DNA of 64,000 bases from Thermoplasmata archaeon (GTDB lineage Archaea; Thermoplasmatota; Thermoplasmata; UBA10834): the NCBI GenBank assembly GCA_020696365.1, contig JAEHCM010000002.1, forward strand, positions 18,751 to 82,750, read 5' to 3'. Under the pieces are notes generated by a model. That model did no database searches. It saw only the letters and a list, made by a program, of their open reading frames with translations, and was not told the origin of the DNA. Both the position numbers and the translations under genes were made by a program. Shown in pieces: positions 2,041 to 5,000 of the stretch. Each line of letters begins with the position of its first letter. Within the stretch, counting starts at the first letter, position 1.

Positions 2041-5000
2041 ATGCTAGCGGCTAAGTAAACCACTTGGGGAATGGCTCGGTTCGGGCGCTGAAGAAGGTCG
2101 TGCCAAGCTGCGATATGCGTCGGGTAAGCGCAAGGAGCTTTTGATCCGACGATGACCGAATGGGACTTCCTGCTCTTCGGAGCAATCCGTGAGGATAGGG
2201 AACCGGGGGAATTGAAGCATCTTAGTACCCTGAGGAAAAGAAATCAATCGAGATGCCGTTATTAAAGGCGATCGAACGCGGCAAAGGGCAAACTGAATCC
2301 TCCCGAGAAATCGGGCGGAGATGTGGTGTTGCAGACTCCCTTACATCTTAACCTGTTAATCCGAAATCGCCTGGAACGGCGTGCCATAGAGGGTGATAGC
2401 CCTGTAGGAGCGCGCAGGAAAGATGATTGGGGATGTTCTAGAGTATTGCGCCTTGGATCTGGCGTGAGAATCTGGGAGCCATTTGCTTCCAACCCTAAAT
2501 ACGACCCGAGACCGATAGTGCAGTAGTAGCGTGAGCGAAAGCTGAAAAGCACCCTTAACGGGAGGTGCAAAGAGCCTGAAACCAGGTGGTGACATAACTA
2601 TGCGGCGTGCAAGGGAAGATGCTCGCAAGAGCGGACCGACGTCGCATTATCCGTTTCGAATAACGGGCCAGGGAGTTCGGATCGATGGCGAGGTTAATCG
2701 GGTAACCGAGCAACCGAAGGGAAACCGACAAGTCCGCAACCCGCAAGGGCCAGGGACGAGGTGGGCTCGCCTGTAGTCATCGGTGAGAGACCCGAAGCCA
2801 GTTGATCTAGGCGTGGATAGGTTGAAGCCCAGGGAAACCTGGGTGGAGGACCGAACCCGTGTTGAGGTGCAAATCACTGGGATGATCTGCGTCTAGGGGT
2901 GAAAGGCCAATCTAAACTGGTTATAGCTGGTTCCTCCCGAAACTACTCGCAGGTAGATCTCGGACGAGATGGACGATGGGGTAGAGCGACCGATTGGACA
3001 TTTAGGGGGAGAAATCCCTCGGTGTCCTGCCAAACTCCGAACCTGTTGTCATCGTAGACTCCGGGAGTGAGCGTATGAGGGGTAAGCTCTGTACGCAAAA
3101 GGGGAACAACCCAAACTCAAGTTAAGGTCCCTAAATATTGACTAAGTGTTAAAGGGCAAAAGGTGTCCTCAGTCTAAGACAACTGGGATGTGGGCTTAGA
3201 AGCAGCCACCATTCAAAGATAGCGTAACAGCTCACCAGTCAAGATTGAGGGCCCTGAAAATGGACGGGGCTAAGTCAGTTACCGATACTTGGGAGTACCG
3301 AAAGGTAATCTGGTAGGGAGGCGTCGTGTGTGGGCGGAAGTTCGGCCGTGAGGTCGAATGGACCGCATTCGAATGAGGATCCTGGTGGGAGTAGCAGCAA
3401 AGAGCGGTGAGAATCCGCTCGGCCGTAGGGGCAAGGGTTCCTCGACAATGTTCGTCAGTCGAGGGTTAGTCGATCCTAAGGCGTTCCTTAACCGAGAACG
3501 TCGAAAGGGTAAGCAGGTTAATATTCCTGCACCGTCGCGATCTCTGCGCACATCCTGACGCATCGGGGTATGCTGAGCAGGAGCGCCAATCTGTTCAAGT
3601 GTATAAGCCTGGGAAGAACCGTAATGGTGAGAACCGGGCGAAAGCACGAGTAGGAGGGCGAAGGCCCTCTTCAGCCTATCCCTGGTGCCCGTGAAAAGGG
3701 GTGTGCTAAATCAATCGCGATGTTCGTACCAAGAACCGACACAGGTGCCCCTGGATGAGAAGTCCAAGGCCTGTCGGCGTTAATTGACGCGAGGGAACTC
3801 GGCAAATTAGCCACGTAACTTCGGGAGAAGTGGTGCCAGCTCAGTGATGAGCTGGTCGCAGTGACAAGGGAGCCCCGACTGTTTAACCAAAACATAGGTG
3901 GCAGCTAGTCCGAAAGGATGCGTATTGCCGCTGAATCCTGCCCAGTGACGGTATCTGAACACCCTTTCCAAGGGGAAGAAGGACCGTTAAACGGCGGGGG
4001 TAACTATGACCCTCTTAAGGTGACAAAAACGCGTTGCCTTAGTAAAATTCGGCTATATGCTGGAATACCTGAGTATCTCACACTACTTTCGATCGAGAGT
4101 GACAATGTGATGAGTGCAGGCAATCAGCAGGAAAGGCTTGATACGTGGTATATATCGAGACATACTATCGAGAATCCTCAGAGACTGTACGCCGGACACC
4201 CGCAAGGGTGAAGATACAGTCCGACCCCCATGGCGACATGGGGAGGTCTCGGGAAACCGTGGCCCGCCTCCGAACGATCGGAGGTCACGAAAGTAACAGA
4301 TGTGAGCGTAATACCTTGTCGCTTAATTGGCGACTTGCATGAAGGCCCAACGAGAGCTCTACTGTCCCCGCGTCGAGGCCGGTGAAACCTACTTTAACGG
4401 CGCACAGTCCGTTATCTTCCAGCTGAAAGCGAAGACCCCGTGGAGCTTTACTGCAACCTGTCGTTGTGGTATGAGCTCGAATGTGTAGTGTAGGCGGGAG
4501 ACGTTACCAGGTGCTAGCCGCCAGGTTGGCACCGAGTCAACAATGAAACACCGCCCTTTCGAGCTCGTATCACTTACATCTTCGGATGGACACCGGTAGG
4601 TGGGCAGTTTGGGTGGGGCGCCACGCCCTCGAAAAGATAACAAGGGCGCCCAATGGTCGGCTCAGGTAGGTCAGAAATCTACCGAAGAGTGCAAGGGCAA
4701 AAGCCGGCTTGACGTGGATCGGCCCAATGACGATCCACGATGAGAAATCAGGGCCTAGCGAACCACTGTGCCTCACAAATGGGGGCCAGTGATTACAGAG
4801 AAGTTACCCCGGGGATAACTGAGTCGTCTCCAGCAAGAGTTCATATCGACCTGGAGGCTTGCTACTTCGCTGTCGGTTCTTCCTATCCTGGTGGTGCAGA
4901 AGCTGCCAAGGGTGGGGTTGTTCGCCCATTAAAAGGAATCGTGAACTGGGTTCAGACCGTCGTGAGACAGGTTTGTTGCTTTTTGCTGGAAGTGTTTTGA

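Follow-up and report, generated by a model that had tools for sequence, protein, structure and literature searches.

Comparative evidence for a compact IB4-like group I intron, lacking an open reading frame, at site L1931 of a Thermoplasmatota 23S rRNA gene

In a stretch of 64,000 nucleotides (nt) from the Thermoplasmata archaeon contig JAEHCM010000002.1 (the whole of which is called the window here), the archaeal 23S ribosomal RNA (rRNA) gene is interrupted by an insert at bases 4022-4304. We hold with high confidence that this insert is a compact IB4-like group I intron, devoid of paired region P2 and of an open reading frame (ORF), situated at L1931 (position 1931 of the large-subunit, LSU, rRNA) in a Thermoplasmatota 23S gene. 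A full group I fold, comprising P1, P3 through P9.2 and the P3/P7 pseudoknot, is supported by comparing the window's sequence with 16 related archaeal inserts at the same site. The intron belongs to a documented class, the archaeal IB4-like introns at LSU/1931, and its host lineage is new to that class.

The initial annotation had proposed a group I intron in an archaeal 23S gene near Escherichia coli position 1931, and both the host gene and the site proved correct. An archaeal LSU rRNA model matched over its full length (Table 1). Within the gene, 283 unrelated bases come after the conserved 23S stretch ...GGGGGTAACTATGACCCTCTTAAGGT, and rRNA sequence then resumes from AGCGTAATACCTTGTCG. Base 1931 of E. 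coli K-12 rrlH (2904 nt) is the T of TAAGGT/AGCG (slash, junction), which places the insert exactly between U1931 and A1932. The intron borders were also set independently by an intron-less metagenomic allele, L158, which aligns to base 4021, resumes at 4305 and contains no gap of its own; the ligated exon junction reads ...CUCUUAAGGU joined to AGCGUAAUACC, and the intron-less site reads GACCCTCTTAAGGTAGCGTAATACC. The insert has a G+C content of 50.9%, versus 54.1% in the exons. Position 1931 is at the subunit interface, flanked by H69 and H71. As a site of group I introns L1931 is classic, being occupied in Thermotoga, Simkania, Synechococcus and organelles (PMC1995217).

A covariance model scan, named in the initial annotation as a check, recovered the insert with Rfam RF00028 at 68.6 bits, above the gathering score of 50 (E 2.8e-15), through a full-length match of model positions 1-253 to window bases 3992-4243. 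The single-sequence fold of the insert gave z = -3.6 relative to shuffles. These values lie well outside chance expectation, and comparison with relatives gave the strongest evidence. Each GTDB species was represented by one genome, and these genomes were scanned for the archaeal 5' exon with a base other than A directly after it; this yielded 36 loci, in 24 of which both exon borders could be located. Sixteen compact inserts (250-336 nt) were aligned with the window's copy using MAFFT, with 12 exon bases retained on each side, giving an alignment of 17 sequences. These inserts originate from Thermoplasmata/Thermoplasmatota, metagenome-assembled genomes (MAGs) labelled 'Methanobacteriota', two Asgard MAGs, one Woesearchaeote and one Nanoarchaeote.

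Analysis of this alignment with RNAalifold, which incorporates no knowledge of group I introns, predicted P1, P3, P4, P5, P5a, P5b, P6, P6a, P8, P9, P9.1 and P9.2, with changes on both sides in 49 of the 70 predicted pairs. A refined structure, with the P7 pseudoknot added, was then counted on the same alignment. In it, 95.5% of cells are paired, compared with 36-41% when the partners are slid by 1-3 columns. Double changes occur in 54 of its 87 pairs, and none of 500 shuffles reaches any of the observed measures. The window's own copy contains a single non-canonical pair, U4249xU4260 in P9.1.

Several core positions are invariant across all 17 sequences. They include U4021·G4036, the wobble pair that marks the 5' splice site, and the terminal G4304, both singled out in the initial annotation, as well as the P7 pair G4183-C4221 with the bulged A4182, the strings CAGAGACU (4179-4186) and AGUCCGA (4218-4224) and the J5/4 string AAUC within CAAUC (4122-4125).

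The motifs that had originally been paired by eye are all located where they were reported. These comprise exon TTAAGGT (4015-4021) with GCCTTAG (4036-4042), ACGC (4029-4032) with GCGT (4306-4309), G4304, the R-like and S-like core elements TCAGAGACTGTA (4178-4189) and AAGATACAGTCC (4211-4222), and the hairpins CACCC-GCAA-GGGTG (4197-4210), CCCCATG-GCGA-CATGGGG (4226-4243) and CCTCCGA-ACGA-TCGGAGG (4267-4284). Two of the helices built from them stood in part. Of the six pairs proposed for P7 (4184-4189 with 4215-4220), the first four belong to that helix; U4188-A4216 and A4189-U4215 do not, and they show no double changes. The bases of these two pairs presumably line up with J7/3 and J8/7 of the Tetrahymena sequence. 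Within P7 the innermost pair is G-C, A-U or U-A among the relatives and the remaining pairs are invariant; by analogy, G4183-C4221 is presumed to be the guanosine-binding pair.

The suggested P10 likewise exists as complementarity and finds no support in comparison. Two registers, 4029-4032 with 4306-4309 and 4031-4035 with 4305-4309, can both pair in the window, but only 65-68% of cells are paired across the relatives. Double changes are absent from the first register and affect one of five pairs in the second.

Archaeal rRNA introns are usually of the bulge-helix-bulge kind (Nawrocki, Jones and Eddy 2018, NAR 46:7970, PMC6125680), which are removed by the tRNA splicing endonuclease, and the initial annotation had set its group I proposal against that type. 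Four strand geometries and nine bulge placements were checked exhaustively; with the splice sites in 3-nt bulges, no more than 3 of the 4 pairs of the 4-bp central helix could form. The insert moreover scores as group I and carries a full, covarying group I fold, and we regard the chance that it is a bulge-helix-bulge intron as negligible.

The coordinates of the structural elements are compiled in Table 1. P1 is extended by two base pairs inside the intron, G4022·U4035 and A4023-U4034, which covary (GU/UA and AU/CG/GC, respectively). P2 is absent, in that only the five nucleotides UAAAA (4043-4047) link P1 to P3; two DPANN relatives have an insertion of ~65 nt at this point. Introns without P2 are typical of subgroups IC2, IA1 and IB4 (Haugen et al. 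2007, PMC1995217). For P5a, an earlier register one position off that of RNAalifold paired 73.6% of cells versus 99.2% and was dropped. The GNRA loop of P9 is GCGA in 16 of the 17 sequences and GUGA in the Woesearchaeota intron L012.

Table 1. Positions of the host gene, the intron and its predicted structural elements in the window.
Feature	Position	Strand	Remarks
Archaeal 23S (LSU) rRNA gene, intron host	2041..5257	+	RF02540, 2738.7 bits; spliced length 2934 nt
Intron	4022..4304	+	283 nt, 50.9% GC; between E. coli U1931 and A1932
P1, exon UUAAGGU (4015-4021) with internal guide GCCUUAG (4036-4042)	4015..4042	+	sequence; U4021·G4036 at 5' splice site, U·G in 17/17
P3, UUCGGC (4048-4053) with GCCGGA (4191-4196)	4048..4196	+	core pseudoknot with P7; 100% paired, double changes in 5/6 pairs
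P4	4058-4063 with 4124-4129	+	100% paired; one pair with double changes, in 4 sequences
J4/5 (GGAA...) and J5/4 (CAAUC)	between P4 and P5	+	A-rich, conserved; classical P and Q elements
P5	4068-4071 with 4117-4120	+	92.6% paired; 3/4 pairs covary
P5a, A4110 bulged	4077-4083 with 4107-4114	+	RNAalifold register; 99.2% paired, 7/7 pairs covary
P5b, loop GAUC	4084-4090 with 4095-4101	+	RNAalifold register; 93.4% paired
P5a conserved internal loop ACAAU	4102-4106	+	
P6	4130-4132 with 4175-4177	+	within 4130..4177
P6a, 22-nt loop	4137-4143 with 4166-4172	+	99% paired, 7/7 pairs covary
P7, G4181-C4222, bulged A4182, G4183-C4221 to G4187-C4217	4181..4222	+	signature GAGACUG/CAGUCC; encloses P3 3' strand, P8, J8/7
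P8 hairpin CACCC-GCAA-GGGUG	4197..4210	+	96.3% paired, 5/5 pairs covary
J8/7 AAGAUA	4211-4216	+	
P9 hairpin CCCCAUG-GCGA-CAUGGGG	4226..4243	+	100% paired, 6/7 pairs covary
P9.1, loop GAAA, mismatch U4249xU4260	4245-4252 with 4257-4264	+	94.4% paired, covariation
P9.2, loop ACGA	4266-4273 with 4278-4285	+	85.2% paired, covariation
Terminal guanosine (omega-G), last intron base	4304	+	G in 17/17 aligned introns
3' exon start AGCGU, possible P10 partner	4305..4309	+	complementarity to 4029-4032 or 4031-4035

Comparison with published introns places the insert beside a well-described archaeal set. Nawrocki et al. reported 39 archaeal group I introns, 27 of them IB4 (PMC6125680). Sixteen of these 27 are located at LSU/1931, all classified as IB4 by a GISSD covariance model match; half of the 16, with lengths of 248-464 nt, lack an endonuclease gene (PMC6125680). 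The statement in the initial annotation that such introns are known but uncommon in archaea is accurate as far as it goes; it understates how thoroughly this type has been documented.

Judged by published description, the archaeal IB4 introns IB4.1 (281 nt), IB4.5 (311 nt) and IB4.24 (248 nt) share with the window's intron the host gene, the site, the size class, the lack of an ORF and the P3/P7 pseudoknot. IB4.2, IB4.5, IB4.24 and IB4.27 have the same P7 signature as the window's intron, GAGACUG/CAGUCC with its second base bulged (PMC6125680 table). The Woesearchaeota intron L012 (336 nt, P7 GAGACUA/UAGUCC), which aligns with the window's intron, matches IB4.3 by host label, length and P7 only. 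Site, P2-less architecture and P7 identity with published members are together suggestive of subgroup IB4.

The host lineage, however, sets the window apart from the published archaeal set. The LSU/1931 IB4 introns on record come from DPANN groups, Thaumarchaeota, Nanohaloarchaeota and one euryarchaeote, and none of the hosts is labelled Thermoplasmata or Thermoplasmatota; the sole euryarchaeal member, IB4.14, is 684 nt long and carries a LAGLIDADG gene (PMC6125680). A search of the literature brought up no relevant report of group I introns in Thermoplasmata.

Outside the archaea, L1931 introns with a single-motif LAGLIDADG gene are described from Thermotoga (698-700 nt), Simkania (654 nt), Synechococcus (666-675 nt), green-algal organelles and Acanthamoeba mitochondria (Haugen et al. 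2007, PMC1995217). These bacterial and organellar introns occupy the same rRNA site as the window's intron; the likeness considered here is one of site and architecture. They differ from the window's copy, which is archaeal and ORF-less. Their counterpart within the window's clade is L018, whose intron is 698 nt long and encodes a single-motif LAGLIDADG_1 protein.

The window's intron itself has stop codons in all six frames, and its longest stop-free stretch of 73 codons leaves no room for a protein-sized ORF. A tblastn search with the L018 endonuclease over the 64 kb found only 16-residue and 10-residue remnants, both inside the ribozyme core. The original remark that a homing-endonuclease ORF is absent is thus confirmed.

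Analysis of L018 (Thermoplasmatota MAG329, JBFMHR010000002.1) indicates that the window's intron is an ORF-less form, a close relative of which carries a LAGLIDADG gene. The ribozyme blocks of L018 are 87-95% identical to those of the window, the exon flanks are identical and the gene neighbourhood is the same, so that the two represent one intron lineage. They differ in the P6a loop, where ~400 extra bases in L018 complete a LAGLIDADG ORF, and in P5b, which is longer in L018. The encoded single-motif protein scores as LAGLIDADG_1 (E 6.7e-25) and resembles solved LAGLIDADG endonucleases (5gkk, E 2.9e-48; I-PanMI).

Gene and ribozyme overlap in L018. From an AUG in the 3' strand of P5a the ORF runs to an end inside P7/P3, and its first residues are consequently encoded by P5, P4 and P6. 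The N-terminus reads MGAGNQQERLD in L018 and MSADNQQERLD in the DPANN relatives, among which L001, L015 and L029 possess ORFs homologous to that of L018. The window keeps the equivalents of 16 N-terminal and 10 C-terminal codons of the L018 ORF, which double as ribozyme core.

Two features of the window's copy were noted alongside this comparison. A 33-codon frame at 4110-4211 opens at the AUG of the relatives' LAGLIDADG ORF (MSAGNQQERLD...) and runs out of frame into P7/P8; it arises incidentally from the ribozyme sequence and is no gene. The P6a loop contains 17 extra bases (4149-4165), found only in the window and L021, at the place of the endonuclease gene of L018. A second copy of TATCGAGA (4153-4160) lies 13 nt upstream of the copy at 4166-4173 that makes the 3' strand of P6a, so an alternative P6a pairing is possible.

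Survey of the wider clade revealed an insert at L1931 in ~10 species-level genomes whose 23S genes are 91-99% identical to that of the window. The clade spans ORF-less copies of 250-284 nt, present in at least nine species-level genomes, the 698-nt LAGLIDADG copy and seamless empty sites, while the sequence identity of the intron among relatives falls to ~70-75%. Closest to the window is the locus L021 (JAJISI010000068.1, 'Thermoplasmatota archaeon bin18'), in which the intron is 98.6%, the spliced 23S 99.4% and the flanking protein-coding DNA 85-91% identical to the window; L021 is a related species, not the same genome.

Intron-less alleles, a survey of which had been recommended at the outset, do exist as seamless empty sites in close relatives. 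When metagenomes were scanned for the ligated junction with the next 44 bases of a 3' exon typical of the lineage, at least 120 contigs matched. The closest empty allele among the matches listed is L158, which is 96.8% identical over the whole 2934-nt spliced 23S; the intron-bearing L020, at 95.5%, is more distant from the window. Tighter pairs also occur: L018, with intron and ORF, is 98.96% identical in its 23S to the empty L106, and the intron-bearing L009 is 99.4% identical to the empty L098. A crude neighbour-joining tree interleaves intron-plus and intron-minus alleles. Sampling of the two states drew on different collections and on queries specific to each state, so their frequencies are not comparable.

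These data clearly show very close relatives to be polymorphic for the presence of the intron. This agrees with the cycle of gain, decay and loss that has been described for homing introns (PMC1995217). Frequent movement of ORF-less copies would also be compatible with the way in which alleles with and without the intron interleave at 98-99% 23S identity, and the ribozyme fold is conserved over a Thermoplasmatota clade with ~8% difference among its 23S genes. We nevertheless consider it quite unlikely that the ORF-less intron, instead of being a decaying selfish element, is kept by the host for a function such as pacing ribosome biogenesis, is retained in the mature 23S, or spreads by endonuclease-free reverse splicing.

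Several points weigh against the interpretation of the insert as a self-splicing IB4 intron. In Thermotoga neapolitana, the LAGLIDADG protein of the 23S intron is maturase-like, stabilising the intron and activating it at high temperature (PMC3984707), so an ORF-less copy might need a host factor. The IB4 call is one of analogy with the introns of Nawrocki et al. P10 and P9.0 lack comparative support in the 17-sequence alignment. Splicing, protein-free self-splicing and guanosine dependence are all attributed to the insert from its family. Finally, the L1931 intron of Simkania is reportedly unspliced, to go by the title of the 1999 report of Everett et al., 'An unspliced group I intron in 23S rRNA'.

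That precedent from Simkania negevensis, at the same site, lends some credit to the idea that the insert is group I-derived and no longer spliced, either staying in the mature 23S or fragmenting it. The conservation pattern argues otherwise: the catalytic core is invariant and the peripheral helices keep pairing through many compensatory changes even as identity declines to the level given above, a pattern expected only if the fold is under selection. The window's copy contains a single mismatch, and 283 extra bases at this point of the subunit interface should be harmful. We therefore judge an unspliced insert or expansion segment very unlikely.

A further possibility is a true group I intron that is not autonomous and whose splicing in the cell requires a host RNA chaperone or a maturase-type LAGLIDADG protein supplied from elsewhere. 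It draws on the maturase-like activity of the protein encoded by the T. neapolitana intron itself, on the fact that the window's copy lost, or never had, a LAGLIDADG ORF, and on the absence of P2 together with weak P10 and P9.0. The three conserved GNRA-type loops (L8 GCAA, L9 GCGA, L9.1 GAAA) and the conserved A-rich P5a internal loop instead suggest self-sufficient tertiary docking, and ORF-less copies persist across the clade with no endonuclease gene detected in the window's 64 kb. Dependence on such a cofactor appears unlikely to us, although it retains an appreciable minority chance.

Under the favoured interpretation of a spliced IB4-like intron, the precursor rRNA would fold into the P1-P9.2 structure and free guanosine would bind P7 at G4183-C4221. 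The guanosine would attack the bond after U4021, held in the U4021·G4036 wobble of P1. G4304 would then occupy the guanosine site, and the freed 3'-OH of U4021 would attack after G4304, so that U1931 is ligated to A1932 and the intron is set free.

With its homing endonuclease absent, the intron cannot home by itself. The ORF-less copy would probably persist by vertical descent, with occasional precise loss being likely. Re-acquisition could take place in trans, through the endonuclease of ORF-bearing relatives cutting the same exon site; the exon target of these relatives is identical to that of the window.

These results extend the published list of archaeal group I hosts (DPANN groups, Thaumarchaeota, Aigarchaeota and a few Euryarchaeota) to the Thermoplasmatota. 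The Asgard MAGs with L1931 introns that emerged from the genome scan are also hosts outside the 2018 list. The clade's series of ORF-less, LAGLIDADG-bearing and empty alleles is well suited to the study of gain, decay and loss of homing introns in archaea, and P2-less ribozymes of 250-283 nt could serve as compact model ribozymes. On the practical side, rRNA annotation and 23S phylogeny of these MAGs require the intron to be masked. Knowledge of how such introns work is unchanged by this result.

Additional loci were returned by the scan. L002 and L003 (Hermodarchaeum and Promethearchaeota MAGs, both Asgard) contain ORF-less L1931 introns of 300-322 nt with the same fold. In L023 (VGTL01000017.1) the intron, 305 nt long and of the same family, has its P5b extended by an additional hairpin of ~45-50 nt, which shows that this peripheral arm tolerates insertions. 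The DPANN MAGs L004 and L014 both have 1308-nt inserts at L1931 that end in A, not G, and whose longest ORF yielded no LAGLIDADG match; these may represent a different or composite element.

L036 (JACWAI010000019.1, 1803 nt), binned as Nitrososphaerales, has the same intron subtype and exon flanks equal, bar one base, to those of the Thermoplasmata MAGs L016, L024 and L031; it is probably misbinned. L005 (CBDCEV010000070.1) and L034 were matched owing to a base substitution after AAGGT, with no insertion. The former, labelled as a Hyphomicrobiales bacterium, contains an archaeal- or eukaryote-like LSU stretch (…AAGGTGGCCAAATGCCTCGTCA) and may be contamination.

The gene order around the window's locus is aminotransferase, 23S, pyridine-nucleotide oxidoreductase and alanyl-tRNA synthetase, and several related MAGs have the same order. 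An Rfam scan found no 16S or 5S rRNA anywhere in the 64 kb, and the 23S gene stands alone. Its flanks, 1882-2050 and 5247-5395, are predicted to form a long stem (RNAduplex, -120.5 kcal/mol) that looks like an archaeal pre-rRNA processing stem.

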